Shown in pieces: positions 807 to 17,768 of a stretch of 39,999 bases of DNA. Each line of letters opens with the position of its first letter. Position 1 is the first letter of the stretch. The position numbers and the translations under genes were made by a program. The stretch covers positions 1 through 39,999 of the IMG/VR virus record IMGVR_UViG_3300037423_000619. The stretch is one strand, 5' to 3'. This DNA comes from a virus (lineage: Duplodnaviria > Caudoviricetes). A model generated the notes under the pieces. It did not search any database, was not told the DNA's origin, and was given only the letters and a program-made list of their open reading frames with translations.

Positions 807-833
807 CAGTTTCTCCGTCTGAGGGAATGCGGG

Positions 834-1420: not shown

Positions 1421-1447
1421 GTCACGCTCCTTTTCGTTGATGGTTTC

Positions 1448-1696: not shown

Positions 1697-1706
1697 TTCA
1701 CCTGTC

Positions 1707-2105
1707 CTAAGCGGCGAGCAGCAGCACGGCGATTGTCTCGTCGTCCTGGTCCTGCTCGATCCTCTGTTGCGCCAGATCAGCGATCATGCGTCGGTAGGCG
1801 TCACGAACAGCTGGCGGCGTGTTGACCGGCAGCGGCACCGCGGCCATGGCCTGCCATGCCATCTCTTCGGCATCGAGTTCGCCGTTCGCCTTTCGGAACG
1901 CATTGCGGACCGCTTGACGGCGAGCCTCAGCATCTTCTCGAGCCGTAAGCCGGCGCCGTTCCTCGTCGCGCTCGCTTTCGGTGAAGTCCCAGACTTGCGG
2001 CTTGCCATCGTGCGTGTCGTGCAGGAACGGCTGAAGCGCACTTCCGACCGGCCCGAAGTACCGGTTGCCGAAGTACCGGGGACCGAAAAACCGATCTGCG
2101 AACAT
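1707..2105 (-). CDS. Hypothetical protein, N-terminal F-x-x-R-[FY]-F-G repeats
   Basis: MFADRFFGPRYFGNRYFGP start; coupled to the upstream gene. Confidence 0.7.
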   Translation of the reverse strand: MFADRFFGPRYFGNRYFGPVGSALQPFLHDTHDGKPQVWDFTESERDEERRRLTAREDAEARRQAVRNAFRKANGELDAEEMAWQAMAAVPLPVNTPPAVRDAYRRMIADLAQQRIEQDQDDETIAVLLLAA

Positions 2106-3226
2106 CAGCTCGGGTCCAGCGTGACCGAATACCTGTTGCCGTCCGCGTCGACCTGAGCGGAAATCCGGTCCTTCGTGTCGTTCGTGTCGCGGAACTTGAC
2201 CGTTGACGTTGCCAGGCCGTTAGCCTTGCCGAGCAAGGCCGCCGCGAAGAGCCGGAGCCCTTGGCGTACAGTCAGTCCGCTCTCCACGCCGGCCGCGCCA
2301 TCGAGCAAGGCCGCCGCGTTCGCCGCTGCGGTCGGAACGTCGCTCACGGCGGCGGGCGCGGCCGGCAGGTTGTCCGTCTTGCCCTTAACCAGCAGCACGT
2401 TGCCATTGATGGTGTTGTCGTTCGTGGCAAGCGTCGAAAACTGCGTGTCGAGATTGGCCGCAGCGAGACCGACGGCGGCGCGCATACCGGGCGCGTCCAA
2501 ATCGTTGAAGCCAGTCACGCCAGTGCCCTTGGCGAGCACGATATTCGTTCCGGCCGTCAGAACACGGGTCGCGGTCGACCAGACGGCATCGAGGGCGTTC
2601 GCCGCGAACTTCGCCGCGGTGATTGCGCCGGCCGCGAAAGTATTGGCGCCGATCGCGCCCGAGTTCCATGCGGTGCCTGCGGCCGACACGACGTTGACGC
2701 CGAGCTGCGCGCTGGCCGTGTTCACCGCTGAACCGGCGATCTGCGTGGCATTCGCCGCCACTACGCCGGCAGCGAGGCTCACCTGGCCCGTTCCGGTACC
2801 TGACGACAGCAGCACGCTCGCGCCGATGTCCCTGGCCGTCTGCACGGTGCCCTGAAGGCTTCCAACGTCAACCCTGCCGTTGGCGTCCACAAGCTGGGTG
2901 CGGCCGCTCGTAGTGTCGCGGCGGAAAAGCTCTATGACGCGCGTCACGGGCGCCATGCTGGCCTGAGTGATGTGCACCGTGTACTCTTCGGCGTCAGACG
3001 TTGACGCGACGGTCGTGTCTTCGTCGATGGTCAGGCAGTAAACGCCCGGCATGTTGGCCGCCGACAGTTCAGTGATCGTCGGCGTGGTGTAGACGGTTGC
3101 TGTGCCGCCGTTGCGGCTGCGATAGACAGTGAACGAGGTCAGACCCGTTTTGCGCGTCTTAAGGTCGGTTGCGTCTACCGCAACGAAGTAGATGTTCTGG
3201 TCGATCTTGCCGCTTGGGATCCTCAT
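2105..3226 (-). CDS. Putative virion structural protein (head fibre/appendage-like)
   Basis: 373 aa, Ala/Thr/Gly-rich, beta-sandwich-like N-terminus, between portal and scaffold. Confidence 0.6.
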   Translation of the reverse strand: MRIPSGKIDQNIYFVAVDATDLKTRKTGLTSFTVYRSRNGGTATVYTTPTITELSAANMPGVYCLTIDEDTTVASTSDAEEYTVHITQASMAPVTRVIELFRRDTTSGRTQLVDANGRVDVGSLQGTVQTARDIGASVLLSSGTGTGQVSLAAGVVAANATQIAGSAVNTASAQLGVNVVSAAGTAWNSGAIGANTFAAGAITAAKFAANALDAVWSTATRVLTAGTNIVLAKGTGVTGFNDLDAPGMRAAVGLAAANLDTQFSTLATNDNTINGNVLLVKGKTDNLPAAPAAVSDVPTAAANAAALLDGAAGVESGLTVRQGLRLFAAALLGKANGLATSTVKFRDTNDTKDRISAQVDADGNRYSVTLDPS

Positions 3227-3993
3227 AGCCAGGCCCCTCCAACCAGAGCTGCGTTGCCCGAAGATTGTGTTTGAGTTTCGGTGTGCGGCGTCTGCGCTGC
3301 CAATCCTATCGAATGCGCAAAAATGAAATTGCGCCCGTTACCGTCCGTGACGTCATAGTCGATTACCTGAGCAGTACTAAGAACCGCGTCAAAGATGCCT
3401 AACGCCCCATAAACAGACACACCGCCAGCCGCCTGATTGTGGGTAATGGACAAACTTGTATTGGCAGCAGCACGGTTGCCGCCTGTCCCGGTCGGGGTAT
3501 TGCTTGCCGCGAATCTGAGAGCAAATGCACCGATGGCCTGAGACGATGACGTGCCGTTGCTCCCGCTCAGTGTAGTTGCGGCTGCATACGTTCCAGCGCT
3601 GACAGCCAAAGAGAACAGACCGTACTTGATTGCGTTGCCCGAAGCGCTGGCTTGATGCGCCGTCATGGCGCTCCCGCCAAGCGTGCTTCCCGAAACAGCG
3701 CTGGTGCCGGTGCCAAGGCCGCAATAGGCAAGAATGGCCAGGCAGTCGTTGGGGAATGTGAAACTCCCCCAGTTCATGGTCGACCAGCTGTTAGTGGTGT
3801 TTGCGAACTGACCGATATAGTCGACGGTGATACCCTGGCCCGCTCCGATGGGCGGGTTCAGCAGCCCATCCATAAACTGGATCGGTTGATACGGGTAGAA
3901 CTGCCCGTCGAACATGCGCAAAGGCTTCAGCAGCCGCCACGGTTCGAACTGTGGAAGCCTGAACGCCTTCGGTGCGAGTGCGAGCGCCGTCAT
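3223..3993 (-). CDS. Putative virion appendage/adhesin-like protein
   Basis: 256 aa, Ser/Gly/Ala/Thr-rich beta-type C-terminus, visibly more AT-rich DNA, ATGA overlap. Confidence 0.6.
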   Translation of the reverse strand: MTALALAPKAFRLPQFEPWRLLKPLRMFDGQFYPYQPIQFMDGLLNPPIGAGQGITVDYIGQFANTTNSWSTMNWGSFTFPNDCLAILAYCGLGTGTSAVSGSTLGGSAMTAHQASASGNAIKYGLFSLAVSAGTYAAATTLSGSNGTSSSQAIGAFALRFAASNTPTGTGGNRAAANTSLSITHNQAAGGVSVYGALGIFDAVLSTAQVIDYDVTDGNGRNFIFAHSIGLAAQTPHTETQTQSSGNAALVGGAWL

Positions 3994-4274
3994 CAGCCGA
4001 GGTTCGCACCTGCTACGGCGTCGGTGACGGTCTTCAGGGCGTTGAATTCTGCCGTCAGCTTGGCAAGCTTGGCCTTCGTCGCCGCCTCGTATGGATCGGA
4101 CGTGCCAAACGCGTTGACAGCGGCAAGGACAGCCGAAAAGTCCGTCGGGATCGCCGCCAGCGACGTGGATGCGCCCGTGGCGTTCTGCTTGACCTTCAGC
4201 ATCACCTGCCGTTGGTCGTAGATGCGCTGCGCGATGGCATCCATGCCAACGTCGATTTCACTGGTTGTAGCCAT
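3993..4274 (-). CDS. Hypothetical helical protein
   Basis: 93 aa, CAGGAG RBS, coupled to neighbours. Confidence 0.75.
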   Translation of the reverse strand: MATTSEIDVGMDAIAQRIYDQRQVMLKVKQNATGASTSLAAIPTDFSAVLAAVNAFGTSDPYEAATKAKLAKLTAEFNALKTVTDAVAGANLG

Positions 4275-6591
4275 TTGCCTGTGCTCCTGTGTTCTGGGTC
4301 GGGATCGCTTCGACGCCGACAGGCTTGCCGGTGCCGTCCCTCACGATGCGCTTGGGTGCGGTCAGCGCCTGGGTGAGCGCGGCGAGCAGTGCATTCGTCT
4401 GTTGGCGGTCCTGCGCCATCTGCGCCATCATCGCGCGGTGATCGTCTAGTTCGGTATCGGGCTGAGGCGGCAGGCCCTGTGCGATCAGGGCGTTGTTCTG
4501 GTCGATGTTTGCCTGCTGCCGCTTCGCCCTCAGATCCATGGTCTTCTCGGCCATGGTCATCTGATGGTCCTGCTTGCGGAATTCGAGCTCCTGAGCGCTG
4601 GCGGCCGCTTTCTGCTCGGCCTCCTGCTGCTTGAACTGCATCTCGCGCTGCTGCGCCTCAGCGTCGGCCTGTGCGCGTGCCGCGTTCGGGTCCGGCTTCG
4701 GCTGCTTGGCGTATTCCTGCATCTGCTCAACCAGGTCATCGATCGCGCCATCAAGCGCGCGGCCGGCCCGGAAGGGCGAAGACACGAATTTCAGCATCTC
4801 GCCTACGAACGGGGCGAGTTGCGGGGCGGCCTGCACCATCGGGAAGGACTGAGCGATGAAGCCACCCACCGCGGTCGTGTATTCTGTGACACGCTGCTTG
4901 GCGGCATCCTCGTCGGGCTGGATCGTGGAATCCGTCTCGATGTCCATTATGAACGGCCGCAACCGCTGATCCCGCAACAGCGCCGCCACGGCCTCGATGG
5001 TGACGGTGTTTTGCAGGTCCTGGATTTGACCCTGAAACGCGCTCATCTGCTGCTGAGCCTGTTGCGCAAGCTGGCCGGCCTGCTCGGGGTTCTGCTGAGC
5101 CATCTGCATGGCTTGCGGATCCTGCGACGCCATCCTGACCTTGCCCTGAAGCTCGATCATCTGCTGATGGATGCCGTTGGCCTTTTCCTGCAACTGTTGA
5201 ACGGTCGGGATATCGCTCTGCGACATCGCCAACAGCGTCTCGGGCGTGAAGTTCTCCGCGATGATCTCGCCCTGAATTCGGGTGATGTCGCGGGCGATGC
5301 GCACAAGCTCGAACTGCTTGTCGCGAACGCGGATCGAACCATACTGGCTCTTGAGCTGCTGCGCGCCGAGCGTTTCGTTCGGGTTGGTCGCGCCGCGCAT
5401 CACGTCCGAAAGGCCGGTGATCTGGTAGATGTCGTCGATCAGCTGCTTGCGGATGTTGATACAGGCCTGGATGGTGGTCGCCACCACGTCGAGCGGAAGC
5501 CAGACGATGGATTCCTTCATGCCCTGGCCGCCGATCGCCGCGAAGTTCGAAACCGGGATCAGGATGGCGTTGTTGTTGCTGGTCTTGACCGCCTTTTCGA
5601 TGGCGTCGGCCAGGTCTTCCGCGCCGCCGGCATAGAAGCCTTTGAGCCGCAAAGCCTCAGACAGCGACGAGATGCGCGCCGTCAGTTCGTTCACTTCCTC
5701 GATCTGGTCCTTGTAGTAGAGGAAGTCGGGAACCGGCTGCAGGGTGTCCTTCTTCAGGGTGCCGAACGACGGACGCGGGCACGGGTAGAAGTCGTCGAGC
5801 TGCAGCATCTCTTCGGGTGAGGCCTCGTCGAGCACGTTTTCGCAGCCGGGACTCACCCACACGATGCGCTGTTCGCCTTTGTGCCACAGTTCCCAGAACT
5901 CGGCCGTCGCCGTCTGCTCGGCGTTGCCGTCAGCATCCTTCTGTTTCGCAAAGGCCGCGTCGGAATAGGCATTGCCCGAATACTTGCCGAAGCGCTTGCG
6001 GGCCTCCTTGCGGGTCAGCCACGTACAGCGGGCCACCCAGCCGACTTCAGACCAGTACCGGGCCGATGCGTCGTGCAGGAAGTCCTTGCGGTTGATGTGC
6101 GCAACGCGGGCGCGCTGCTGGCCCTTGGCGTCGATCTCATACCAGCACCAGGCTACACCGCGCGCGTTCACCACGAGGTCATCGCGGACCAGCCTCATGG
6201 TGCTGTCGATGTCTTCCCGTTCGAAATTGACGATCGAGCAGCGTTCCAGCACTTCGCAGGCTTCACGGTGCGCCGGCCGACGGTCATTGAAGCGGGTCGT
6301 CACCACCGGCACGGGCGGGCGCGAGTAGACGGACGGCTTCAGGACTTCAAGGTTTGCCCAGAACATCTGGTATTCACGGTCACGCGTCGCCTTTGCCAGG
6401 CGTTCCAGATTGGCAAGCTGAAGCTCGATGTTGTCGCATCGGTCGTTGTACGGTTTGAACACGCGCCGGGAATGGGCGATCAGCGCCAGATAGGACTTGG
6501 CCGAACGCCCGTTCTTGACCGGCGCCGCGCTGTCGTCGGCGGCCTCGCCGTCGGGCGCAGCGCCGGACGCTTCGTCGTAGGTATCAGCCAT
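4258..6591 (-). CDS. Portal protein
   Basis: ~777 aa after the terminase; ITGLSDVMRG..ETLGAQQLK podoviral portal-like motif; Gln-rich C-terminal coiled coil. Confidence 0.88.
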   Translation of the reverse strand: MADTYDEASGAAPDGEAADDSAAPVKNGRSAKSYLALIAHSRRVFKPYNDRCDNIELQLANLERLAKATRDREYQMFWANLEVLKPSVYSRPPVPVVTTRFNDRRPAHREACEVLERCSIVNFEREDIDSTMRLVRDDLVVNARGVAWCWYEIDAKGQQRARVAHINRKDFLHDASARYWSEVGWVARCTWLTRKEARKRFGKYSGNAYSDAAFAKQKDADGNAEQTATAEFWELWHKGEQRIVWVSPGCENVLDEASPEEMLQLDDFYPCPRPSFGTLKKDTLQPVPDFLYYKDQIEEVNELTARISSLSEALRLKGFYAGGAEDLADAIEKAVKTSNNNAILIPVSNFAAIGGQGMKESIVWLPLDVVATTIQACINIRKQLIDDIYQITGLSDVMRGATNPNETLGAQQLKSQYGSIRVRDKQFELVRIARDITRIQGEIIAENFTPETLLAMSQSDIPTVQQLQEKANGIHQQMIELQGKVRMASQDPQAMQMAQQNPEQAGQLAQQAQQQMSAFQGQIQDLQNTVTIEAVAALLRDQRLRPFIMDIETDSTIQPDEDAAKQRVTEYTTAVGGFIAQSFPMVQAAPQLAPFVGEMLKFVSSPFRAGRALDGAIDDLVEQMQEYAKQPKPDPNAARAQADAEAQQREMQFKQQEAEQKAAASAQELEFRKQDHQMTMAEKTMDLRAKRQQANIDQNNALIAQGLPPQPDTELDDHRAMMAQMAQDRQQTNALLAALTQALTAPKRIVRDGTGKPVGVEAIPTQNTGAQANGYNQ

Positions 6592-6781
6592 GGGCAAGTC
6601 CTAGTTGCTGCGCCAGCCAAACCGGCAGCTCGTGGCCGGTGCGCGGCTGCGGCGCGCCGTTCAGCGGCTTGAACTCGCACGCCATGATGGGCCGCCCCGA
6701 AATGACATCGTTCAGCAACTCGTAAGCCTGACCGTCTGGCCCTTCGAAGCGATGGCCGGCGCGATATAGCGGTTCTGTCAT
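6584..6781 (-). CDS. Hypothetical protein (65 aa)
   Basis: ATGA overlap with the terL stop; GAGGA RBS. Confidence 0.65.
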   Translation of the reverse strand: MTEPLYRAGHRFEGPDGQAYELLNDVISGRPIMACEFKPLNGAPQPRTGHELPVWLAQQLGLAHG

Positions 6782-8286
6782 ACGCTGATCCTCGTGCCAG
6801 TTCGTTCCTCTGGCGGGCCGGGCAGAAGCACCTGGCCGGGCTGAAGCTTCGGCTTCGGCTTCGCGGGTGGCTTGGCCGTCCATGGCCGCGACATGCAGGC
6901 GTAGCGGGTTTCGTCGGCCGCGTGGTCTTCCTGCGTCGTGTCCAGGTCTTCCGGCTTGTTCTCGTCGTGCTGAAGCGCCGGAATCGTTCGGATGGTGTGA
7001 ACGCAGGTTTCGAAGAAGAACAGCATCGGCCGTCCGTCTTCGTCGCCTGTGAGCCGGCCGCGCATCTGATCCCAGCCGCCCATCGCGCCGCGACCGGCAA
7101 CACGGGCATTGTCCGCTGGCCGGAACGTCGATCCGTTCCTGCCGGTCGTTCCCCTTGCCATGCGCTCGGCGATCGATGGTCCGCCGTCCTGACTGAACGC
7201 GGCCGGGTCGAGAACGCCGTAGCTGATGACGTCGGTTCCGTCCCTCTCACGCACGCCCGCGCCGACGGCATCGGCATGCATCTTCAGGCCGGTGTCCGGC
7301 TTGTACTGGCCATCTTTGTCCGTCTGGATCCCATACCACTCGCGGTACTTGACCAGCGCGCCGCGCGGGATCACGACGCCCGGCCCTACAATGGTGTCAT
7401 CGGAGGCGACCGCATACCAGCCGAACGAGAACGGCTTGGCGCTGCCCCAGTCCCCCGCCCTAAAGCGCGTCCAGTGCTCGGGAATGGTGAAAGGCCGGAT
7501 GACATGCCGGCGCCGGTCGAAATTGTCGAAGAATGCGCCCTCGATGACGTCCCAATCGCCATAACGCATCGCCCGCACCAGGGCTTCCGATCCCAAGCCG
7601 TGCAGACGGTTCTCATAATCGGGATCGTTGTCGTTCATCGACGGATTGTCTTCCAGCAGCGCCGGGATGAACTGCCGACGCATGCCGCCTTCCGATTTCG
7701 CGGTCTGCCTGATCTCCATCGGCCGCGCGTTGTCGACGAACGTCTGCTTGACGAACTGGTGGCCGATCCCGCCCGGATTCGCGCCGCACAGGATGCGCGG
7801 GAAACACCCCTTGTACTTCTCGGGAAGCTTGATGCCGACCATGCGCACGCGCATGCGCAGATATCGGTAGATGACTTCCGTGAAGTGTGTCAGCTCGTCG
7901 ATGAGCAAGACGTGGATTTCGGCGCCCTGGTATTTGAAACGGTGCTTCTCGTCCTTGCAGTGGCAGAGGAAGATTTTTGAGCCGTTCCAGAACCTGATTT
8001 CGTCCTCGATGATCTCCACCCAGCCACAGGCCACCCAGCCGGCGAGCAGCGCGCGAAACCCTTGCGGGCCTTCCATGTGGTTCTTGGTCAGATCGTCGCT
8101 GATGCGCCGGAACAGGTACACCTGAAGGCCCGGGATCTCCGAGCACCACATGATTGCAGCCTGCCGCATGAGGTGGCTTTTGCCGCCACCCGCCGCGCCG
8201 CCGTAGAGGATTTCCGTGGCGGTGCTGTGAAAGGCGAGCGTCTGCTTCTTGTGGAAGTGAAGATCAATCGCTGCTGAAGCTGGCAT
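6778..8286 (-). CDS. terL: Terminase large subunit
   Basis: Walker [11 protein letters not shown], Walker [10 protein letters not shown], coupling motif GANP, C-terminal nuclease with DWG and DHAADETRY. Confidence 0.95.
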
Positions 8287-8722
8287 TGATCGTCGGCATC
8301 AGCGGCGAGCCGTCCTTACCGGTCAACTCGGTCTTGTCGGCCAGGCCGAGGTCGCGGGCGATGATGTTGGCGTTCAGCAGCTCGGCGGCAGCGCCTTCGA
8401 ACTTCTGCGACCGAATGATATCCTCCACTCGCGTGGTGATGGCCAGAAAGTCTTGCCGTTGCCGGTAATTGTCCCACGTGGCACGGCTGATATCGAGGAA
8501 GATGCACAGGCCCATGATCGTCATGGCGCGCATCTTCGGCAGTTCCTTGATCGTCACTTCGCCCTGGTATGCGAAGGCCTTTGCCTCATACAGCGGGTTC
8601 GCCTCCACCCAATCGAAATATTCGCAACACGCCACGAACAAATCGTCGGGGGTAGCGAAGATCGGGGCGCGCCCGTGTGAGCTGCGCGCCTCCCAGAAGC
8701 GATTTCCAACTGGTGCTGCCAT
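8264..8722 (-). CDS. terS: Terminase small subunit, P22 gp3-like
   Basis: [18 protein letters not shown]...[13 protein letters not shown]...KMRAMT...[18 protein letters not shown] closely follows P22 gp3 as recalled. Confidence 0.93.
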
Positions 8723-8861
8723 GGTGGTCTTTCCCGGTCTGAGCGGGTGCAATAGAGCGCGGCAGGGTTGCGAGACTTGGCTTACTCGCTGTCCGGGCGG
8801 CGTGATGCCTGCCCATTCCCCTCTGCCGCGCGATCAGGCGGTTTGCGGCGCCCGCCCGATG

Positions 8862-9161
8862 TCAAAGCCGGTTATGTATGCGCTGCATGTCACCCATGAT
8901 CCGGCTGGCATGGGCGTTCACAGCTTCGGCAATGTCGTCGATCTGGCCGAAGAAGCTGGCGGCCTGGGATGCAGGCTCCTTGCCGACCGCTTCCGGCTGA
9001 CTGCCGCAAAGCTGATCGGCAGTGGCCCTCGCCATCAACCCGGCCTCGGTCAGGCGCTTGAGCGCTTCGTATAGATTTGCCATCGGTGTCGGCTTCACCT
9101 GTGAGGCGGCCTCGCCACCCAGAGGGTAATGCCGTTGGTCTGCGGATGCCTTGATGTCCAC
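8862..9161 (-). CDS. Hypothetical protein (99 aa)
   Basis: GTG start with AGGAG RBS in frame with ORF 8862..9227. Confidence 0.6.
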   Translation of the reverse strand: MDIKASADQRHYPLGGEAASQVKPTPMANLYEALKRLTEAGLMARATADQLCGSQPEAVGKEPASQAASFFGQIDDIAEAVNAHASRIMGDMQRIHNRL

Positions 9162-9319
9162 GACTTTTCTCCTGATCTGGAATTGAGATTTCCGGCGCCA
9201 CCGCTTCCCCGGTTCAGCCGACGGCACCGCCGCCCCGGCCGGGTTCTTCTTAGGATCGAGCGAGAGGCTTTCCGCGCATAGCCGGCATCAGCGCTCCAAA
9301 GTCCCGGGGCAGGGATCAG

Positions 9320-9357
9320 AAAAGCGAAAGCCGCCCGGTTGGACCCGAAGCGGCTTT
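9320..9357 (-). terminator. Intrinsic terminator (possibly bidirectional)
   Basis: aaagccgc...gcggcttt stem; TTTCGCTTTT follows on the minus strand and ttaatttt on the plus strand. Confidence 0.7.
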
Positions 9358-9364
9358 AATTTTT

Positions 9365-9416
9365 CCACGAACTTCGTGGTTTTTCTCTTGCAATTCCACG
9401 GAGACCGTGGGATAAC
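9365..9416 (+). promoter_or_regulatory. Promoter with two palindromic operators CCACG-N5-CGTGG
   Basis: CCACGAACTTCGTGG (9365-9379) and CCACGGAGACCGTGG (9396-9410), 31 bp apart, flanking TTGCAA (9388-9393). Confidence 0.7.
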
Positions 9417-9461
9417 AGCATTACCGAAGCAATTCCGCTTCGGGAGGACTAGGAGGTCCCT

Positions 9462-9530
9462 ATGAGCTTCAAGCTCACCTTCCAAGTCCGGATCGGTCGC
9501 TGGAGAGTAGCTATCTCCATAGGCCGCTAA
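9462..9530 (+). CDS. 22-aa peptide MSFKLTFQVRIGRWRVAISIGR
   Basis: Strong AGGAGG RBS at 9451-9456, ATG..TAA; below the ORF-track cutoff. Confidence 0.7.
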   Translation: MSFKLTFQVRIGRWRVAISIGR

Positions 9531-9598
9531 AACCGGAGCCGGGTGGGGGTCCAAACCTCACCCGGTCCCGGATATAGCAAACCAGCGAGGTTCTTTCA

Positions 9599-9901
9599 AT
9601 GAAGCCGATGGCCATGCCGCTGCATCTGACCGGGCCGATGCTCGACACCTACCGCAAGATTGCCGGGGTCTCTCAAGCCGAAATGGCTCAGGCCATGCGC
9701 CTGCCGCTTCGCACGTTCGAGGATATCCTGGCCGGGAAGTCTCAGCTGCGCGAAGTCCATTTGCGCGCCGCCGAAATGGGGATGCTCGCCCTCGCCTGGA
9801 AGAACGACGACGCCAGCAAGTTGCCCAAGCACCTGAAGGATCTGGTTCGCGAAGTCGCCGCGCTGCTCGACGCTGAAGACGCCAACAAAAAACCCGCCTG
9901 A
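9599..9901 (+). CDS. XRE-family HTH transcriptional regulator
   Basis: LDTYRKIAGVSQAEMAQAMRLPLRTFEDILAG helix-turn-helix. Confidence 0.85.
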   Translation: MKPMAMPLHLTGPMLDTYRKIAGVSQAEMAQAMRLPLRTFEDILAGKSQLREVHLRAAEMGMLALAWKNDDASKLPKHLKDLVREVAALLDAEDANKKPA

Positions 9902-9912
9902 TTTGGCGGGTT
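9887..9912 (-). terminator. Intrinsic terminator (tR'-like)
   Basis: aacccgcc/ggcgggtt stem followed by T6 on the minus strand. Confidence 0.8.
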
Positions 9913-9939
9913 CGCGACGCAATTTTGCGCATGGCGTTC

Positions 9940-9968
9940 TCAATAGGGGGTTTCGTGTCGAAAGTCAA
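9940..9968 (-). promoter_or_regulatory. Putative late promoter (pR'-like)
   Basis: TTGACT-N17-TATTGA overlapping the stop of the putative late regulator, ~30 bp before a terminator. Confidence 0.55.
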
Positions 9969-10597
9969 CGTTTCGGCGCGCGACCTGTGAAGCGGAAGTG
10001 AGCGGCGCAAGCCCGCAGATCATGGTGCAGGACCGATGCCATTTCGCGCTCGGTAGCGCCGTGCTTGCGGGCGATTTCCTTGGACGTCATGCCGCCCACG
10101 CAATAGTCGACCAGGCGCGCCGCCGGTTGTCGGCCGAGTTCGACCACGAACCCGTCCAGCCTGTCGACCGCAGCCACCCGGCCATCCGAGATTCCGGTGG
10201 CATAGCCGGATGATGTGCCGCGAAGGAAATTGGCGGAACTGGCGATGGTGAGCCCGGCGCGCTCCCACAGGATCGCCAGATGACTGCCGGCATGGAACAG
10301 CGCTGACTGCTTGTTGCGGCCATAGCGCCATTCGAATGTTCCAGGCTTCGCCCGGATCGTCTGTAGATCGTTGCGCTTTCCTGAAATGCGAAGCTTGACG
10401 GTCGTGACCTTGGCGCCCTCCTTTCCGCCGTCGAGAGCCTTTAGCCTGGTGATGGCGCGGGGCTCCCGCTTCCGACCGGCCTTGCGCTCGTCTGCGGTGA
10501 TCGCGTGCGAGATCGGTCGCTTCTTCGGCGGGGTAAAAGGCACTTCGTCGAACAGCTTGGCTGACGGACGCATTTCAGTTTTCGTCCGTCGCTTCAT
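9965..10597 (-). CDS. Putative late-gene regulator/antiterminator (DUF6456-like)
   Basis: Last gene of the early-right operon; LFHAG..LWERAG motif, C-terminal HTH-like MTSKEIARKHG; Q-like position. Confidence 0.6.
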   Translation of the reverse strand: MKRRTKTEMRPSAKLFDEVPFTPPKKRPISHAITADERKAGRKREPRAITRLKALDGGKEGAKVTTVKLRISGKRNDLQTIRAKPGTFEWRYGRNKQSALFHAGSHLAILWERAGLTIASSANFLRGTSSGYATGISDGRVAAVDRLDGFVVELGRQPAARLVDYCVGGMTSKEIARKHGATEREMASVLHHDLRACAAHFRFTGRAPKR

Positions 10598-11451
10598 GCT
10601 CGCTCCCGCGCGTCTTTGCCGGCGTAGGGGATCAGTCGACGAGCCGCCTTGGCTGGCTCGGCCTCGCTGACAACGTTGGCGGTGGCGGACCGCCGCTTCT
10701 TGCACTTCTGGAACCAGGTCGATGCAAGCCCTTTCCAGAACGTCACGCCGTGGGTGGCGGCGAACCGGCGCGCTTCCTTGTCGAGCGACGTGCCTACCGT
10801 CTTGATGGTATTCGCCAGATCCTCCGCCGCGATGTGTGGCGCGAACTCGCGATCGGTAAGCAAATGCTCGACGGCCTTCAGATGGTTCGCAGTGATCGGC
10901 TTGAAGCCGCCGGCCGCGACCGTCGTCAAGAACTCGGCCACGCGGCTATCCACATAGCCGGCGACGAGCTTCTGCAGCTCGCCGACGGCGATGGTGTCAT
11001 TGGCCTTGAAGTTGCCCGGAAACTTCGGAATGCGGATGCCCGCCTGGCTGGCCGCCTTCAGCGTCTCGGCCGCGCTACCTGTGCCGGCCGCCAACTCGGC
11101 GAAGAACAATTCCAGCGCCGAGACGTTCTTGCGGTGCTTGTTCACGTCAACGAAGATCGAGGCTTCGACCGCGATGTTTTCCGCTTGCACGATGACGGCA
11201 GGAACGTGCGAAACCAGCGGATGAAGCTTCGCCGCTTCAAGGCGATGCTGACCATCGGTCACATGGAAGCCATCGCCGGCAGGAACCACGACGAGCGCGC
11301 CGAACGAGCGCCACGTGAAGGCCTTGACGATGTTGTTCACCCGCTGCTCGTCGAGCGGGCGCTGATATAGGGGATCGACAGTGATCCGGCCGGTTTCGAT
11401 CCAGTCGAGAACCGGCACCTCGCCGGGATCGGGAAAGTTTTCCTGCTCCAT
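10594..11451 (-). CDS. ParB-like N-terminal domain protein (DGQHR/DUF6551-like)
   Basis: VDPLYQRPL and VTDGQHRLEAA motifs; GAGGG RBS. Confidence 0.8.
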   Translation of the reverse strand: MEQENFPDPGEVPVLDWIETGRITVDPLYQRPLDEQRVNNIVKAFTWRSFGALVVVPAGDGFHVTDGQHRLEAAKLHPLVSHVPAVIVQAENIAVEASIFVDVNKHRKNVSALELFFAELAAGTGSAAETLKAASQAGIRIPKFPGNFKANDTIAVGELQKLVAGYVDSRVAEFLTTVAAGGFKPITANHLKAVEHLLTDREFAPHIAAEDLANTIKTVGTSLDKEARRFAATHGVTFWKGLASTWFQKCKKRRSATANVVSEAEPAKAARRLIPYAGKDARERA

Positions 11452-11453
11452 GG

Positions 11454-12206
11454 CTATGCCCTCACCGCCAGCTGCTGCTCGATGAGCGAGGGCTTCAGCA
11501 CCATTTCCCGGCCCATCAGCGAAAGCTCGTCGGCGCGCTCGTTGCCGATAATGCCGGCGTGGCCTTTGCACCATTCCAGTTCGATCGGGTGCAGACCCAG
11601 GGCGCCGTCGAGACACTTCCACAAATCGAGGTTCGCGACGTCCTTCTGCCCACGGCGCCAGCCGTTGCGCTTCCACTTGTGCCGCCACTCGTTGCAGCCG
11701 TTCACGGTGTAGGCGCTGTCGGAAATGATGCGCGGCGTCTTTTCGGGCTGGTTGTTGGTGATCCAGTCGAGCGCTTGCAGGACCGCCGTCAGCTCCATCC
11801 GCTGATTGGTTGCCTCGTGGTCGCCACCCTGTGCCGCGGCGATTTCCTTGCCGTCGAGATAGACGACAAATCCCCACCCGCCGATGCCGGGGTTAGGCTC
11901 GCAGCACCCATCGGCATAGATGATCAAGCCCATCGGCACAGCCCGCGCATGATGCGGCTTGTCAACACGATGTTGACTTTTGGCCATGTCAAATCTGTTT
12001 GACTTTGCCTTTACCGCGTCGACACCGCCCGCTGCCGCCAGCAGCCGGTCGGCCTCTCGGCGAAGCTGCTCCTTCGTCGGCTGCTTGCCCTTGCGGGGCA
12101 GGCGAATATTGGCTGGCCAACTGCTGTCGTCAGAGGCCGATTCCGAACCGTTGCGCTGTATCAGCTTGCGCATGCGGTGATTATCCCAATGGCTTCGCTT
12201 GCTCAC
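11454..12206 (-). CDS. rnhA: Ribonuclease HI with ~90-aa basic N-terminal extension
   Basis: IYADG..PNPG.GGWG, TNQRMELTA, ISDSAY, W..KWKRNGW, NLDLW, KGHAG..GNERADELS. Confidence 0.93.
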   Translation of the reverse strand: MSKRSHWDNHRMRKLIQRNGSESASDDSSWPANIRLPRKGKQPTKEQLRREADRLLAAAGGVDAVKAKSNRFDMAKSQHRVDKPHHARAVPMGLIIYADGCCEPNPGIGGWGFVVYLDGKEIAAAQGGDHEATNQRMELTAVLQALDWITNNQPEKTPRIISDSAYTVNGCNEWRHKWKRNGWRRGQKDVANLDLWKCLDGALGLHPIELEWCKGHAGIIGNERADELSLMGREMVLKPSLIEQQLAVRA

Positions 12207-13090
12207 AGCTGTTCTCCCGCAAGCTTGCGGTGCAGCAGATCGGCGCGGGCGATGATGCTCACACTTTCGGCCAGCCGGGTCAGCTCCCTTTCGCTCGCAA
12301 TCTTTGTGAACACGCGCGTCATGCGCGGATCGTCAGGCCAGGTCTTCATCCGGTCGAGACAGACCGAAAGCGCCTGGCTGGCATCCAGGAACGTCTCCGG
12401 TGTGAAATTACCTTCGCAATCCCGCAACTTCTGGACCGCCCTTGTGTAGCTGAGGGGCATAGGATTGGCCGCCGCGTCCGTCAGGAAGGGGCAGTCGTCT
12501 TCCAGCAGTTCATCCCTGACGATGCTGAACTGGCGTTCGCTCGCCGGTATCGGCAGCATCTCATCGACCGCGTACCAGACCGGGCTGAAGAAAGAGCCGT
12601 CCTCACGCTTGATCGCCTCGCCCCTGATCGGGCGCGCGGTTTCCTCACCGGTATCTGCCGCCTTGTCGAACAAGAGCACGTTGAAATAGCCGTCGATCGC
12701 TGCCGGCGTCACGAACACGACCGGCTGGTGTGGCGTCTCGGCTTCGTGCCAGCCGATGCAACCGATGATCAGCGTTTCGTCGGTGGCCGGTAGTTTTCGC
12801 TTCGACAGATAGTCCAGGGCGGCCTTGATGCCGCCAAGTTCGGACACCGTGTCCGCTGCGATGCCGGAGCGGGCAAGCTGCATCAGCCGACGCGCCTGCC
12901 GTTCATGCACGCTCGCGCGATCAAGAAACGATGTCCATTCGCCATGCGCGCAGGATTCCTTGGCTTCGCAGAGCAGGCGGCCGGCGACCAACGCCTTTTC
13001 GATGAAAGCATGCTCGGCCGCCGCCGATTCCTCATTCGCCGCTTTGACGCGTTCGGCCAGATCAGCCAGGCTGTTAGAGAGATCGGTCAT
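12203..13090 (-). CDS. DUF3102-like domain protein
   Basis: AGRLLCEAKESCAHGEWTSFL...ERQARRLMQLA motif. Confidence 0.7.
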   Translation of the reverse strand: MTDLSNSLADLAERVKAANEESAAAEHAFIEKALVAGRLLCEAKESCAHGEWTSFLDRASVHERQARRLMQLARSGIAADTVSELGGIKAALDYLSKRKLPATDETLIIGCIGWHEAETPHQPVVFVTPAAIDGYFNVLLFDKAADTGEETARPIRGEAIKREDGSFFSPVWYAVDEMLPIPASERQFSIVRDELLEDDCPFLTDAAANPMPLSYTRAVQKLRDCEGNFTPETFLDASQALSVCLDRMKTWPDDPRMTRVFTKIASERELTRLAESVSIIARADLLHRKLAGEQL

Positions 13091-13389
13091 GCTGCACCTT
13101 TGGACGGCTGGCCGTTGTCGTTGTCGCTCGGGATGATGAATTCGGGCTCGATCTCGATCCGATCGCCAGCGAACCGGAACCAGATTTTCAGCAAGCCCGC
13201 GTTGATGAGCTCGCGCGTGGCGTCCCACAGTTCGCGGTCGTCGAACGGTGCATCGGGGCCGGTGAGACGGCGAAGCATCGCCATCATAATCTTGCGCGCA
13301 TCCTCGCCTACGGTTTTGGCAAATTCATCGAATGGCAAATGAGGGTTGAGACGCGCCCATTTCTCGGCGCGCCGCCGCTTCCTGTTCAT
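13087..13389 (-). CDS. Hypothetical protein (100 aa)
   Basis: ATGA overlaps at both ends, AGGAG RBS. Confidence 0.7.
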   Translation of the reverse strand: MNRKRRRAEKWARLNPHLPFDEFAKTVGEDARKIMMAMLRRLTGPDAPFDDRELWDATRELINAGLLKIWFRFAGDRIEIEPEFIIPSDNDNGQPSKGAA

Positions 13390-14324
13390 GCTGCTCTCCT
13401 GGCTTTGGTAAGGACGTCGTTCCAGTCCTCGCCGACCATCGGCGGGATCTGAACGCTGGTGATCAGGCCGGCACAGGCCAGCCGATGGGCGAGGGCGTAG
13501 GCCGCAGCCTGGCCGCCGAATTTCGGATCGTTGTCGCCGTAGATGACGACTTCGGTGACGCCGGCAGGCGCCTGCCATTTCTCGAGCCCGGTCGAGTTGA
13601 CGGCTGACCAGCACGGAACGCCGAAGAGCACTGTCGCAGCCAGGGCCGTTTCAATGCCTTCGGCGATGCCGAGCGTTGAGCCGTGTGGGGCGAGGCGAAT
13701 GGCGGCGCCGGCAGGGAAATCGCCCGGCATCATCTTGCGCACCTCGTCGACATCGGCCTTTCGGCCGTCGGCGGTGAGATAGGTCCGATGGATGTTGACG
13801 GCGGTTCCGCCCGCGTCGATCAGCGCCGCCAGCATCGCCGGATGGTTGCCGCGCCGGCCTGTCTCGTCGCGGTATGCCGCCGACGGCGCAAACCGCAGCG
13901 TGTGCGGATAAAAGTCGAGCCCGACGGCGCGACCGCGCAAGTAGCGGTCAACCGGGTCGCCGCGCGTGATCCTGCCGGCGCTGTCCCACAGGCGCGCCAG
14001 TGCTGCCTCTCGCTCCTGCGAGGTCTGTTCCTTTTTTTTCTTGCCGATCGGTGCCGAGCCGATCACGCCTTCAATGGCTGTGGCTGCATCCTTGAAGTCG
14101 AGCCCGAGCAGTTTCATTACGAACTGCACGCCGTCGCCGGCCCCGCATTGCGAGCAGAAGAACGTACCGTTGCCGCCCTTGTCGTCGAAGCGGAACCGAT
14201 CCTTGCCGCCGCAGCCTGGGAGCGGACAGGGGCGATGTCTGCCGGTCAGCACCGATGACGGAACGCCGAGCGCAGTCATGATGCCGGGCCACCGGCCGCG
14301 TGCACGGTCCCTGATCTTTTCCAT
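13386..14324 (-). CDS. DNA primase (P4 alpha-type Zn finger + Toprim)
   Basis: HRPCP..CGGKDRFRFDD..G.G.FFCSQCGAGDG; IAEGIETAL; YGDND; GEDWND. Confidence 0.9.
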   Translation of the reverse strand: MEKIRDRARGRWPGIMTALGVPSSVLTGRHRPCPLPGCGGKDRFRFDDKGGNGTFFCSQCGAGDGVQFVMKLLGLDFKDAATAIEGVIGSAPIGKKKKEQTSQEREAALARLWDSAGRITRGDPVDRYLRGRAVGLDFYPHTLRFAPSAAYRDETGRRGNHPAMLAALIDAGGTAVNIHRTYLTADGRKADVDEVRKMMPGDFPAGAAIRLAPHGSTLGIAEGIETALAATVLFGVPCWSAVNSTGLEKWQAPAGVTEVVIYGDNDPKFGGQAAAYALAHRLACAGLITSVQIPPMVGEDWNDVLTKARRAA

Positions 14325-14926
14325 CAGGCCGCGCCCTTGTTGAAGGACACCCGTCCAAGGGACGAAAGAGCCTGCTGCTTAAGCTTACTCTCGGGGGTTT
14401 CTTCCTCTTGGATAGGAAGGGATGTTCCTTGTTCTTGGTCTTGTTCCTGTTCTTGGCTTCGAAGGGCCTTGGAAGCCCCTTTGGAGCCCCTTACGAATTC
14501 GGCGAGGTCGGGACGGGGCACAAGATGGAAATCGTCGCTGTATCGCAAAAAAAAGCAGTGCGATATCAAGCATTTCGGCAGTGCCGCGAACTCTTTCTTG
14601 ACGGCAACAACACGGTTGTCGTTGGCCTTCAACGCGGTTCCGACCTGAAACCGGGCCATCTCATGGACCCAGACCAGATCGATGCCCTCATCGAAGCTAC
14701 ACCAGGACACTTCGCAGAGCCTTCGAAGCCCCTTCGAAGCCCCTTCCAAGGGGAGACCGGTATCGGTTGCGATGTAGGCGACGGGGCAGTGAAAAACCCC
14801 GGTCATGGTCGAGTGCGGACCGGTCAACAGATACATGGCGACCAGCTGCGCGTCGCTGTCGCCGCGAAGCAGCCGGCCGGTTCGACCAGTCCAAAAGCTC
14901 GGAGCCACGGTGCCGTAAGCTCTCAA
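14324..14926 (-). CDS. Phage replication initiator-like protein
   Basis: FWTG..LVAMYLLTGPH..GVF..P..YIA.DTG winged-helix-like N-terminus; QEQEQDQEQ linker; internal DNA repeats; upstream of the primase. Confidence 0.7.
   Translation of the reverse strand: MRAYGTVAPSFWTGRTGRLLRGDSDAQLVAMYLLTGPHSTMTGVFHCPVAYIATDTGLPLEGASKGLRRLCEVSWCSFDEGIDLVWVHEMARFQVGTALKANDNRVVAVKKEFAALPKCLISHCFFLRYSDDFHLVPRPDLAEFVRGSKGASKALRSQEQEQDQEQGTSLPIQEEETPESKLKQQALSSLGRVSFNKGAA
14457..14753. repeat. Iteron-like GAAGCCCCTT repeats in two clusters (candidate replication origin)
   Basis: 14457-14497 cttcgaagggccttggaagcccctttggagcccctt; 14721-14753 cttcgaagccccttcgaagccccttccaagggg. Confidence 0.6.
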
Positions 14927-15216
14927 CGCTTGCCCCCGATCTGCGCTTGAAGCGCGGCGATCAGGGCTGCAACGGCGTCGTCGTCGCGGAGAACGACGAA
15001 CATGTCTTCGTCCGGGCCGTCCGGGTGCTCCTGGCGGATGACAATGCCGTCGACCCGGTTCCGGTACACGGCAACGGCGCGCTGCTCGTCGACCACGATG
15101 TCGTCGCGGTCACGCCACGAGAACGGGTCATTGTCGAAGCCGATCTCGGCCACGACAACGCCGCCGACCTTGATTTCCGCTATCTTGGTTTCGCCTGTCT
15201 CGAAAAGGTCGCTCAT
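14923..15216 (-). CDS. Hypothetical acidic protein (97 aa)
   Basis: TGATG coupling, GAGGG RBS. Confidence 0.7.
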   Translation of the reverse strand: MSDLFETGETKIAEIKVGGVVVAEIGFDNDPFSWRDRDDIVVDEQRAVAVYRNRVDGIVIRQEHPDGPDEDMFVVLRDDDAVAALIAALQAQIGGKR

Positions 15217-15392
15217 CAGAGTGCCCTCGCGCGGATCAGGTTCGCTTGGCGGATGGCCTCGCACGCCTGTGAGGCCGAAAGCCCGAACTGCTCTTTCAGT
15301 TGAGGGACCGCGGGGCGATTCTTGTCTCGGTTGCCGGTGGCGAGCCACGTAGCCGCGGCGGACACCGTGTCCGTTTCGGGCCGGCCGCTCAT
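15216..15392 (-). CDS. Hypothetical protein (58 aa)
   Basis: ATGA overlap with the cro stop; VPQLKEQFGLSASQACEAI helical motif. Confidence 0.7.
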   Translation of the reverse strand: MSGRPETDTVSAAATWLATGNRDKNRPAVPQLKEQFGLSASQACEAIRQANLIRARAL

Positions 15393-15643
15393 GGCGTCAC
15401 CGACCGCTGCTGTTCGGTCTTCAACTGGTTCAGCAGGCGCAAGCTGGCGCCTTCGATACCGGCCTTGCCGTTTTCCATGCGCCACACGGTCGTATAGTCG
15501 CAGCCGAGGTAGTCAGCGAGGTTTGACCGCTTCCAGTTCCTGGCGTTGCGGATGGCCACCATGTCAGCCGGAGTGATCGGCTGTAGAGGGGCGATCGGGA
15601 GCGGCTTGACGCCATCGTGTAGGTGAGTTGCTTCGGTCTGCAT
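15389..15643 (-). CDS. Cro-like XRE HTH repressor
   Basis: IRNARNWKRSNLADYLGCDYTTVWRMENG; divergent from cI. Confidence 0.85.
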   Translation of the reverse strand: MQTEATHLHDGVKPLPIAPLQPITPADMVAIRNARNWKRSNLADYLGCDYTTVWRMENGKAGIEGASLRLLNQLKTEQQRSVTP

Positions 15644-15673
15644 TGGCCCTTTCCTATGCGGGTTGCACAATTC

Positions 15674-15746
15674 AATGCGTTAAGCATAGCACAAGATCGA
15701 GCAAAAACAATGCAGCGTGCATTACCATTTTCATGCATAATGCATG
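15674..15746. promoter_or_regulatory. OR-like operator triplet ATGC-N5-GCAT
   Basis: aatgcgttaagcata 15674-15688, aatgcagcgtgcatt 15709-15723, catgcataatgcatg 15732-15746. Confidence 0.8.
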
Positions 15747-15773
15747 GAAACCATGGTTTTTGGGGATAAGGGA

Positions 15774-16622
15774 ATGCAAAACGAAGAAGCCACGCCGGCG
15801 GGTCGGTTGCGAAGCGCGAGGTTGGCCGCAGGCTTTAAGTCGGCAACCAAGGCGGCTGATGCGCTGAAAATCAGCTTGGGCACCTATGCCGGTCACGAAA
15901 ACGGGTCACGGGCGTTCGACCGGGAACAGGCGCAGAAATACGCTCAGAAATTCAAGGTGCGGGAGGCCTGGTTGATGTTCGGCGAACCGCCGCGTTCGCA
16001 GATCGCCAAGGATCTGATGGTTGGCGGGATCAATGAAGAGACGATCAAGCGCATCCCAATCGACGTATGGGACCCGGCCGAGCCGGATCACGCCAGCCAT
16101 ATCGATAGTGGCGATGTCGGAAATGATGAGGGAGTGCTGTCCGGCGCACACCAATACACGCCTAAGCTGGACGGTGCTATTCCAGAGATTGACGTTCGAC
16201 CAGGTGCCGGGCAGGGGCAGGCGGGCGCCGAGGTCGTTGCGATTTCCAGCGGCGGAGCGATCACCGGTCACAAGGTGGTCAGCGAATGGGTGCTGCCGGC
16301 GTCGTTCTTCCGGCATGAGCTGCAAGCCTCGCCTACTGGCTCGATCTTCATGGCGGTGGTTGGTGACAGCATGGCGCCCACACTTCAGCCGGGGAACAGG
16401 ATCATCGTAGACACCCGGCAGAATACGTTCGGAGCCGACGGCATCTATGTCTTCGATGACGGCGATGGCGAACCGCGGGTGAAGCGTCTTTCCAAGGTGC
16501 TTTTCAGTAACCCGCCAGCCGTAACGATCCTCTCCGACAATCCCGCGCATCCTGCGCAGAACGCATTGCTCGGCGATGTGCGAATCATCGGCCGTGTCGT
16601 GGGTCAGGTGTCCCGGCTCTAA
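15774..16622 (+). CDS. CI-like repressor, XRE HTH + S24 autopeptidase
   Basis: RLRSARLAAGF..YAGHENGSR HTH; cleavage-site-like GAGQG; VVGDSMAPT catalytic Ser; RVKRL catalytic Lys; IIGRVV. Confidence 0.93.
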   Translation: MQNEEATPAGRLRSARLAAGFKSATKAADALKISLGTYAGHENGSRAFDREQAQKYAQKFKVREAWLMFGEPPRSQIAKDLMVGGINEETIKRIPIDVWDPAEPDHASHIDSGDVGNDEGVLSGAHQYTPKLDGAIPEIDVRPGAGQGQAGAEVVAISSGGAITGHKVVSEWVLPASFFRHELQASPTGSIFMAVVGDSMAPTLQPGNRIIVDTRQNTFGADGIYVFDDGDGEPRVKRLSKVLFSNPPAVTILSDNPAHPAQNALLGDVRIIGRVVGQVSRL

Positions 16623-16681
16623 TGCGCGGGCATTGAATTAATGCGATATGCATTGACTTAGTTAATGCGCTGTGCATTAAT
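16621..16681 (+). promoter_or_regulatory. OL/PL-like region
   Basis: aatgcgatatgcatt 16640-16654 and aatgcgctgtgcatt 16664-16678, plus an N4 variant at 16621-16634; TTGACT at 16653-16658. Confidence 0.8.
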
Positions 16682-16710
16682 CGGCTCCAACGAAGCAGTT
16701 GGAGCCCACC

Positions 16711-17040
16711 ATGAACCTCTTGGCCAAAGCCTTCTCTGATCTCTCCCGGCCGGTCGATGGTGAATTGCTGGCGGCAGCATGGCGCATCGCCTCGCAAGAC
16801 GTGGCCGACGATCTGCGCTTCATCCGCCAGTATGCCAAAGTGATCGCTGAGCGCGACGAATGGCTTTCGACCGGCGCGCTTGTCCATCGTCCGGCCTATG
16901 TCCAGCAGTGCCGCCATTGGCTGGCTGAGACGATCAAGCGCTATCTACGCAACGTCCGCACCATTTCTGAGACGGAAGCCGCCATGACCGACATCGGCAT
17001 GGCCTTCGCCAAATCTTCCTATGCGTGGGATGCAGCGTGA
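16711..17040 (+). CDS. Hypothetical early protein (109 aa)
   Basis: GGAG RBS, first gene after the PL-like promoter. Confidence 0.7.
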   Translation: MNLLAKAFSDLSRPVDGELLAAAWRIASQDVADDLRFIRQYAKVIAERDEWLSTGALVHRPAYVQQCRHWLAETIKRYLRNVRTISETEAAMTDIGMAFAKSSYAWDAA

Positions 17041-17044
17041 TGGC

Positions 17045-17647
17045 TCACGGCTTCTGCTTACCCGTAAATATAGCTCCCCCACCGCGGTGTCCGCCGCGTT
17101 CCAACCGTTCACGGAATGTCAGTTCGTCCCTTAGTTCTTGGATCGACAGGGGAGATTTGAATGCCGCGACGGCTCGGCGTAGCGCGGCGTCGTTTCCCTC
17201 GGCGGCGCCGCTTAAAAGCTCTTCGAAGGCCGCGATCAAATGGCTAACGCGCCGCAGCTCGCGCTTCATGTCCTCTGTTTCCGCCGTCTGTCGTTTGAGG
17301 CTGGCAAGCTCGCTCTGTGCCTCCCTCAATTCGAAGTTTTGCATGCGATACTTGTCTTCGATCCCAGCCGATCGCTCTTCGACTTCATGGAGCATCTTCG
17401 CAACGCGCTCCATGTCCGCGATGTATTTCCGGGACTGCTCGCGCTCAGTCGCTAATTCCCGCTCTTTCCGTTCGAGTAGGGCGCTGGTTTCCGCGTACCG
17501 GCGCAGCAGCTTGTCGAACTCCTCCAGGCGGAAAACGATCTCGCCGTTCATCGACCTGGAGCTTTGGGTCGCGGCTTCGGTCAGCGCGTCTCTCAGGACG
17601 ACGGGCAATCGCAAGGTGATGCGCGTCTCTAAAGGGTCTTCAGCCAT
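17045..17647 (-). CDS. Arc/Mnt-family ribbon-helix-helix protein with long coiled coil
   Basis: RITLRLPVVLRDALTEAATQSSRSMNGEIVFRLE. Confidence 0.85.
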   Translation of the reverse strand: MAEDPLETRITLRLPVVLRDALTEAATQSSRSMNGEIVFRLEEFDKLLRRYAETSALLERKERELATEREQSRKYIADMERVAKMLHEVEERSAGIEDKYRMQNFELREAQSELASLKRQTAETEDMKRELRRVSHLIAAFEELLSGAAEGNDAALRRAVAAFKSPLSIQELRDELTFRERLERGGHRGGGAIFTGKQKP

Positions 17648-17709
17648 TTCATCCCGGCCAGTTATTCACAGGTATCGGGCGAATAGCACCGTTTTGATGC
17701 CATGCCAAC

Positions 17710-17743
17710 TTGACACCAAAATGGTGCGACACTAAAGTGGTGT
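17710..17743 (+). promoter_or_regulatory. Sigma70 promoter overlapped by tandem 16-bp operators
   Basis: TTGACA(17710-17715)-N17-TAAAGT; gacaccaaaatggtgc/gacactaaagtggtgt. Confidence 0.75.
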
Positions 17744-17768
17744 CATAGTTAACGAGAGAGGAAAGGAA

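Follow-up and report, generated by a model that had tools for sequence, protein, structure and literature searches.

What is a block of some 550 bases, packed with palindromes, a very short open reading frame (ORF), stems, minus-strand promoter boxes and a gene for a helix-turn-helix (HTH) protein, doing ahead of the terminase genes of a temperate phage? The window, by which we mean the whole stretch of DNA analysed here, is a lone virus record of 39,999 bases whose gene content (integrase, Arc-like regulators, primase, terminase, portal, lysis) is that of a temperate phage. The plus-strand cassette is flanked by the terminase genes and by a minus-strand DUF6456-like gene (9965-10705) that has weak Q-like and sigma matches. 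The palindromes, -35 box, AGGAGG site, 22-codon ORF, hairpin, minus-strand boxes and HTH gene listed in the original prediction are all present where it had placed them (Table 1), and a 5′ hairpin and two stems inside the ORF, which it had overlooked, are added here.

Table 1. Positions in the window of the parts of the cassette and of phage features discussed in the text.
Feature	Position	Strand	Remarks
Module extent	9323-9875		stretch absent from a close relative
Terminator-like hairpin, predicted antisense 3′ end	9320-9357	-	-18.5 kcal/mol; 6 T behind on the minus strand
Operator 1	9365-9379		5-bp arms, 5-bp spacer
Predicted sense promoter	9388-9416	+	-35 at 9388-9393, -10 at 9411-9416; operator 2 occupies the 17-nt spacer; start near 9422
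Operator 2	9396-9410		between -35 and -10
Hairpin 1	9424-9443	+	predicted mRNA 5′ end; two-sided changes at 5/7 pairs; 99% of cells paired
Stem 2	9446-9489	+	ribosome site and start codon paired with codons 4-9
AGGAGG ribosome site	9451-9456	+	
Peptide ORF	9462-9530	+	22 codons; cationic amphipathic; predicted beta-hairpin, turn at residues 12-13
Stem 3	9494-9526	+	second half of ORF; 96-100% of cells paired; one pair with two-sided change
Hairpin 4	9533-9571	+	behind the stop codon; variable loop; two-sided changes at 7/13 pairs
Predicted antisense promoter	9572-9600	-	-35 at 9600-9595 (over HTH start codon), -10 at 9577-9572; 17-nt spacer
Predicted antisense RNA	9321-9566	-	~245 nt; covers hairpin 4, ORF, leader and sense promoter
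XRE-type HTH repressor gene	9599-9901	+	100 aa; recognition helix at residues 36-44; own ribosome site 9587-9590
Phage's own flank, outside the cassette	9887-9969	-	promoter-like boxes 9969-9964 and 9946-9941; terminator 9913-9890; kept in the empty allele
Integrase	20356-21591		

A portable unit and its distribution

By comparison of sequences, the cassette is a portable unit of about 550 bases. DNA contigs of runs X1 and X3 carry an empty allele in which position 9322 is connected directly to 9876, with the right-hand terminator retained, and since a close relative thus lacks 9323-9875, the module has been gained or lost. The overlap of the final HTH codons with the right-hand terminator suggests an insertion; a deletion between short look-alike ends is also possible. 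It had been proposed that terminators bound the cassette on both sides, and for the right-hand one this needs correcting. None of the 8 nt that follow the right-hand hairpin (9890-9913) on the plus strand is a T, and as its U-run is on the minus strand only and it persists in relatives without the cassette, it belongs to the phage and is not a demonstrated end of the sense mRNA, for which we found no terminator. We infer that this hairpin and the promoter-like boxes of the same flank constitute a late promoter with an attenuating terminator. In the deposited phage RHph_TM3_3_3, a NusG-like antiterminator occupies the place of the DUF6456-like gene.

Elsewhere in the window, a non-coding stretch ahead of the terminase genes (9188-9310) is nearly identical in the related locus L001, and part of it (9242-9292) recurs in contigs with unrelated flanks; it has no stable minus-strand fold (z +1.8) and no Rfam match. 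The minus-strand ORF at 8862-9227, between the cassette and the terminase small subunit gene, has no family match and is absent in L001, which marks a second variable slot. Beside the integrase gene, the plus strand at 22215-22985 encodes a Bro/Ant-type N-terminus and a region matching the BstA abortive-infection model (E 4e-16), a candidate prophage defence gene.

With hairpins 1 and 4, the codons of the peptide and the helix of the HTH as anchors, searches yielded 64 distinct copies, and four more (L186, L192, L201 and L202) were found after these. The order of all elements is repeated in the 64 copies analysed, including the succession of peptide, hairpin, antisense box and HTH whose conservation the original prediction had left to be checked. 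Together with the fold and the scarcity of the palindrome described below, this recurrence shows that the arrangement is not a chance one. Most copies are in Rhizobiales prophages; the named carriers are Mesorhizobium, Aminobacter, Chelatococcus and one Rhizobium phage, and relatives of the HTH are named from Rhizobium, Ensifer, Neorhizobium, Shinella and Agrobacterium. As most of the anchors favour close relatives, this range is a lower bound. The cassette is rare: with few candidates scored per genome, the RNA model matched two genomes out of 151 at family level and one out of 151 at class level, each of them already in the set. A word-index protein search returned only the query itself and an exhaustive search 79 relatives, whereas tblastn of the 22-residue peptide found one phage and no plasmid, and tblastn of the L063 peptide gave no match. 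Chance explained 11 of the 16 genome matches to a degenerate peptide pattern and 7 of the 8 to the antisense-promoter pattern. Loci found by the HTH alone carried the full cassette in 14 of 17 cases from metagenomes (one was truncated by the contig end and two were without it), and among 21 viral loci all 19 true HTH matches carried it, many of them re-finds. The 22-residue ORF is unannotated even in RHph_TM3_3_3.

At the 32 loci with flanks, an antiterminator gene converges on the HTH gene in at least 7, and terminase or HNH genes lie on the other side in 9; other copies adjoin tape-measure, endolysin (lysis), primase or methylase genes. Of 116 neighbouring ORFs picked, 73 were scanned. On the strand opposite to the cassette, tRNA genes are frequent at its flanks (L003 2914-2989, L062 1128-1201, with look-alike stretches in L011, L027, L053 and L180), and the window contains none. 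In L060, L170, L174 and L175/L178/L190, a second small ORF of 19-35 residues, hydrophobic and helix-like, lies upstream of the operators and has its 3′ end at or within the left hairpin; the one in L060 is followed by an HTH of the cassette family that has no beta-type peptide. These second ORFs are possibly stacked type I-like modules.

Decayed copies were also found. The start codon is broken in L095, the ORF has collapsed in L074, the HTH occurs without the peptide in L060, L064, L073, L171 and L179 (the last with its operators present), and an intact peptide is absent from three of six new full-length HTH matches in genome samples. A copy on plasmid pMspAR02b (L002 2945-3500) has lost the peptide and operators, leaving hairpin 4, the antisense boxes and a frameshifted HTH gene. 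In L074 (genome G762, which carries cas1), a CRISPR-like array with repeats of 29 nt immediately precedes the HTH with its collapsed peptide region, around 1100-1500.

A conserved peptide and its predicted control

The peptide had been described as beta-hairpin-like, and comparison strengthens that prediction. Its ORF is under purifying selection (pN/pS 0.45 over 54 alleles, and 0.47 in loop codons), and the five other frames have stops in 2 to 54 of the 54 alleles, with values of 0.68-2.1 where they could be tested. Between this ORF and the peptide gene of the closest relative there are six synonymous changes and a single Ile-to-Leu replacement. Positions 3, 5, 7, 9, 11, 14, 16, 18 and 20 are hydrophobic in 399 of 405 cells and the alternate positions in 0 of 405, a pattern that we read as one face of a hairpin with a two-residue turn. 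The beta moment of this peptide (GRAVY 0.25) is 3.2 and its alpha moment 1.7, and the beta moment was the larger in all eight peptides examined. Seven divergent peptides found only via the HTH share just 2-10 identities with it and keep the alternation, the net positive charge and the larger beta moment; one of the divergent peptides, that of L202, starts at CTG. Trp14 is invariant and is followed in most copies by an A-rich Arg codon. No family match was obtained in Pfam, PHROGs or NCBIfam, in which short queries have low power. We consider the peptide a likely toxin.

Leader and ORF fold into four stems, and the fold of 9405-9620 has a z of -5.2. Over 50 distinct rows, 94.5% of cells pair and two-sided changes occur in 16 of 40 pairs, values that all shuffles and slid controls fell below; the structure was derived from the same 50 rows, which favours it. 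The probability that the ribosome site is paired is 0.94, against 0.67 in synonymous shuffles, and was higher than in the shuffles in 51 of 55 cases. In 6 of the 50 rows, a G-C pair of stem 2 is replaced by C-G, and all seven copies with a C behind GGAG carry a Ser codon at position 6, which restores the pair; RNAalifold alone under-calls this stem because of register shifts. The ribosome site is thus predicted to be sequestered by codons 6-9 of its own ORF. In L202 and L072 it is hidden instead by a long-range pair behind hairpin 4, and in L062 (0.56) and L192 (0.28) it is poorly hidden.

Hairpin 1 is likely a stabilising leader. Among 65 distinct matches, it also heads nine unrelated phage genes, 15-30 nt before the ribosome site (L096, L101, L114, L115, L149, L158, L089, L110 and L142, around the match at 1501), in several of them just behind a -10-like box, and the two of these that were compared with Rfam gave no match. 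Possibly, then, it is a general 5′ leader hairpin of phage transcripts.

On the minus strand, both antisense boxes are present at exactly 17 nt in 58 of the 64 copies and absent in the other 6. Their columns are 84-96% conserved, compared with 31-67% for most spacer columns, and they match what we take to be the rhizobial sigma70 consensus, CTTGAC-N17-CTATAT. Behind the operators, 53 copies have a terminator-like hairpin on the minus strand and 11 have none; in the 53, the predicted antisense RNA is 234-258 nt long (fold z -4.1), and its first stem-loop is the complement of hairpin 4. These counts are in keeping with the earlier proposal of minus-strand boxes driving an RNA of ~240 nt that ends at 9320-9357. 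As the predicted start is ~33 nt upstream of the HTH start codon, the HTH gene's own ribosome site, which is present in 60 of 64 copies, would be spared. RNA run X5, which is unstranded, has two exact contigs within positions 1-20000 (9386-9533 and 19491-19660) and a contig of a related cassette over 9445-9578. The first of these is uninformative on the antisense RNA, because it reaches ~35 nt upstream of the predicted sense start and fits either antisense RNA or stray DNA.

The third predicted layer of control is the repressor. The exact palindrome occurs only three times in the window, and the arms of operators 1 and 2 agree at 87% within a copy and at 57% between copies. A TTG stands between the operators throughout the copies listed, and the sense promoter was missed by a strict scan for the E. 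coli consensus. The HTH has a weak match to HTH_31 (E 0.008, below the curated cut-off), and its predicted structure is an XRE fold with two extra C-terminal helices (mean pLDDT 89). Foldseek with this model gave no match at E 0.001, and the nearest folds are generic XRE proteins that tie with one another (Aca10, C-proteins, HigA, ClgR and others).

Among 49 HTHs of less than 70% identity, residues of the recognition helix go with bases of the operator: Glu41 with an outer C in 19 of 19 and a non-Glu residue with a non-C base in 29 of 30, Asp42 with an inner G in 32 of 34 and Asn with C in 2 of 2, and Pro36 with a middle A in 29 of 29. L180 is an exception to this code, and the operator finder misplaces the operators in L015 and L014. 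Distances between operators correlate strongly with those between recognition helices (rho 0.74, or 0.72 as a partial correlation controlling for the RNA part); the corresponding values are lower for the RNA part, at 0.27, and for the C-terminus of the HTH, at 0.40. In a phylogeny from which the helix was left out, the Glu state changed about nine times, at least five of which are forced by well-supported branches, and the members of sister pairs such as L019/L170, L097/L162 and L026/L137 have different residues as well as different bases. From this covariation, the HTH is predicted to bind both palindromes. In 14 of 64 copies, the HTH exceeds 110 residues through unrelated C-terminal extensions (L006, L013, L019, L099, L127, L170, L175, L179, L180 and others), which in L013 contain Cys pairs; such extensions are possible cargo or sensor domains.

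Candidate functions

We favor, at roughly even chances, the explanation that this portable two-gene prophage module is a moron that resembles a type I toxin-antitoxin system and carries a repressor of its own. The core of the original prediction, an autoregulated combination of type I-like antisense control with an HTH repressor, is well supported by the comparison, while the attenuator and the late gate that it offered as alternatives are not. The favored explanation rests on three predicted layers that would all silence the first cistron and leave the second translatable, as would be expected around a harmful peptide. Peptide and HTH would be made from one mRNA, with HTH dimers on the two operators damping the sense promoter and the antisense RNA pairing with the peptide half only, so that repressor would be made and peptide would not. 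The 5′ hairpin would let the mRNA outlast the antisense RNA, and when transcription stops, through prophage loss or take-over of the host by another phage, leftover mRNA would yield peptide. The peptide, as a cationic beta-hairpin, might then damage the inner membrane or block a host protein by strand addition, and the outcome would be addiction or abortive infection.

More tentatively, and with the odds in our judgement against it, the cassette could be the founding member of a three-part class of phage addiction or abortive-infection modules. Its effector, a cationic beta-hairpin of the cytoplasm, would assemble in the inner membrane and represent the first class of non-helical peptides to be controlled by antisense RNA, and the one-residue-one-base operator code of its repressor family would have been rewritten repeatedly to keep co-resident prophages orthogonal.

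Several observations speak against the type I-like explanation. No activation route for the peptide is evident, the anti-SD has an unusual position, a sense terminator was not found, the peptide is not of the alpha-helical membrane type, L180 departs from the operator code, and there are decayed copies, copies without boxes or terminator, and the poorly hidden ribosome sites mentioned above. Furthermore, since the RNA half is near-constant while the operators diversify, antisense RNAs of different copies might cross-silence, which one would not expect of addiction modules in competition. Specificity of the antisense RNA may reside in the variable loop of hairpin 4.

Alternatively, the cassette could be a burst operon akin to acr-aca operons, the main rival, which we regard as unlikely and still worth serious attention. 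In a naive cell, without repressor or antisense RNA, a pulse of peptide would disable a host defence or another host protein before HTH and antisense RNA shut it off, and operators would diversify to escape resident prophages. In acr-aca operons (Aca1, Aca2, Aca10), an inverted repeat overlies the promoter, transcription starts 10-15 nt behind it, a hairpin comes right after the start, the start codon has a fixed position, and the HTH gene is last (PMC13551039); the cassette matches this layout and likewise has a small gene ahead of the HTH. The burst reading explains the promoter layout and the repeated operator switching as well as, or better than, the type I-like explanation does, and strong promoter-like boxes followed by hairpin 1 also stand before other phage genes. 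On the other hand, a hidden ribosome site and one CTG start oppose a burst, and the antisense RNA is left unexplained; neither "antisense" nor "peptide" occurs in the text of PMC13551039. Aca10 is among the nearest folds of the HTH (Z 7.6, rmsd 2.3 over 56 aligned residues; profile E 0.001), but it ties there with the C-proteins, HigA, ClgR and others, and Aca models in NCBIfam or PADLOC did not match the HTH, which has no Aca family assignment. Hairpin 1, whose position would suit an RNA site for the HTH, stays constant while the recognition helix changes, and it heads the nine other genes as well. Cas1 was found in one of eight host genomes with an intact cassette, genomes that may be incomplete, and no known acr was among the 73 scanned neighbours. 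The cassette further differs from acr-aca operons in having an antisense promoter and a partner of only 20-25 residues.

A role of the peptide as a regulatory partner, binding its own HTH or another phage regulator in the manner of an antirepressor while the antisense RNA sets the ratio of peptide to HTH, is improbable. Peptide and HTH nearly always travel together, the HTH has two extra C-terminal helices, and beta-strand peptides are able to add to protein sheets. Nevertheless, the peptide is almost fixed while its HTH partners fall below 70% identity (49 clusters), the predicted HTH model has no strand to pair with, and L179 and L060 have operators and HTH without the peptide.

Less probable again is a leader-peptide attenuator or translational sensor controlling HTH synthesis, which had been put forward in the original prediction and is suggested by a short ORF in a strongly folded leader with Trp14 and the Arg codon behind it. 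Hairpin 4, behind the ORF, has a sense-strand U-run in 0 of 64 copies, the HTH ribosome site is free in 60 of 64, the codon table of the 54 alleles shows no tandem or run of regulatory codons, stem 3 accounts for the Arg codon, and selection preserves the physical pattern of the faces and not particular codons. Finally, late transcription has to pass through the module in antisense orientation, but a gate on it hardly merits consideration as the module's purpose: the converging antiterminator gene, seen here and at the sampled loci above, and the terminase or HNH genes opposite would suit such a gate, but close relatives do without the module at this very site, presumably a usual landing place for morons, and other copies have quite different neighbours.

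Relation to known systems and significance

Type I toxins are usually of the alpha-helical membrane type, with a single hydrophobic alpha-helix, whereas the cassette peptide is predicted to be a beta-hairpin. Protegrin and arenicin are cationic beta-hairpin antimicrobial peptides of ~20 residues with hydrophobic and basic residues alternating around a central turn; the cassette peptide has no disulfides, is cytoplasmic and is phage-encoded, so that the comparison is an analogy only. The prophage operons P22 arc-sar-ant, P1 c4-icd-ant and P4 CI-kil combine an autorepressor with RNA silencing of one cistron. In the cassette, by comparison, the silenced gene comes first and the repressor last, there is no antirepressor, and the unit is portable between sites. 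In the three-component type II systems omega-epsilon-zeta and paaR-paaA-parE, transcription is controlled by a separate third, DNA-binding gene; they differ in that the antidote of the cassette is predicted to be RNA and not protein.

A sequestered ribosome site is a key determinant of type I toxin mRNAs, with the anti-SD described upstream or at the 3′-end (PMC8594479), and the toxins are small hydrophobic membrane-damaging proteins (PMC5367252). The cassette resembles systems such as hok/Sok, Ibs/Sib, Fst/RNAII, AapA/IsoA and TxpA/RatA in its ORF, which falls within their 20-60 residues, its sequestered ribosome site, 5′ stem-loop and mobile location, and an antisense RNA, predicted to act in cis, that has a promoter and a terminator of its own (PMC8594479). 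It differs in that the anti-SD lies inside the ORF, in an antisense RNA of ~245 nt where 60-200 is usual, and in a dedicated repressor, predicted to be co-transcribed, with an evolving operator code. No Rfam family, type I antitoxins included, matched at gathering score. We thus regard the cassette as type I-like by layout and in no described family by profile, with a predicted toxicity.

The original prediction did not recognise a described system here, and we likewise obtained no match in Pfam, PHROGs, NCBIfam or Rfam and no published description of this arrangement in the mostly open-access main texts searched; the 2,000+ toxin ORFs that Fozo 2010 predicted (cited in PMC8594479), or the tables of the Aca study, could include these ORFs. 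Neither rhizobia nor Alphaproteobacteria are named in the T1TAdb text (PMC8594479).

The prevailing view of type I systems is one of a narrow range and of mostly helical membrane peptides; an effector of the beta-hairpin type, accompanied by a dedicated repressor, would broaden it on both counts. We point out that, because its layout mimics that of acr-aca operons, guilt-by-association searches for anti-defence genes should meet this cassette. The 49 pairs of HTH and operator constitute a natural and directly testable recognition code, and possibly an orthogonal set of repressors for rhizobia.
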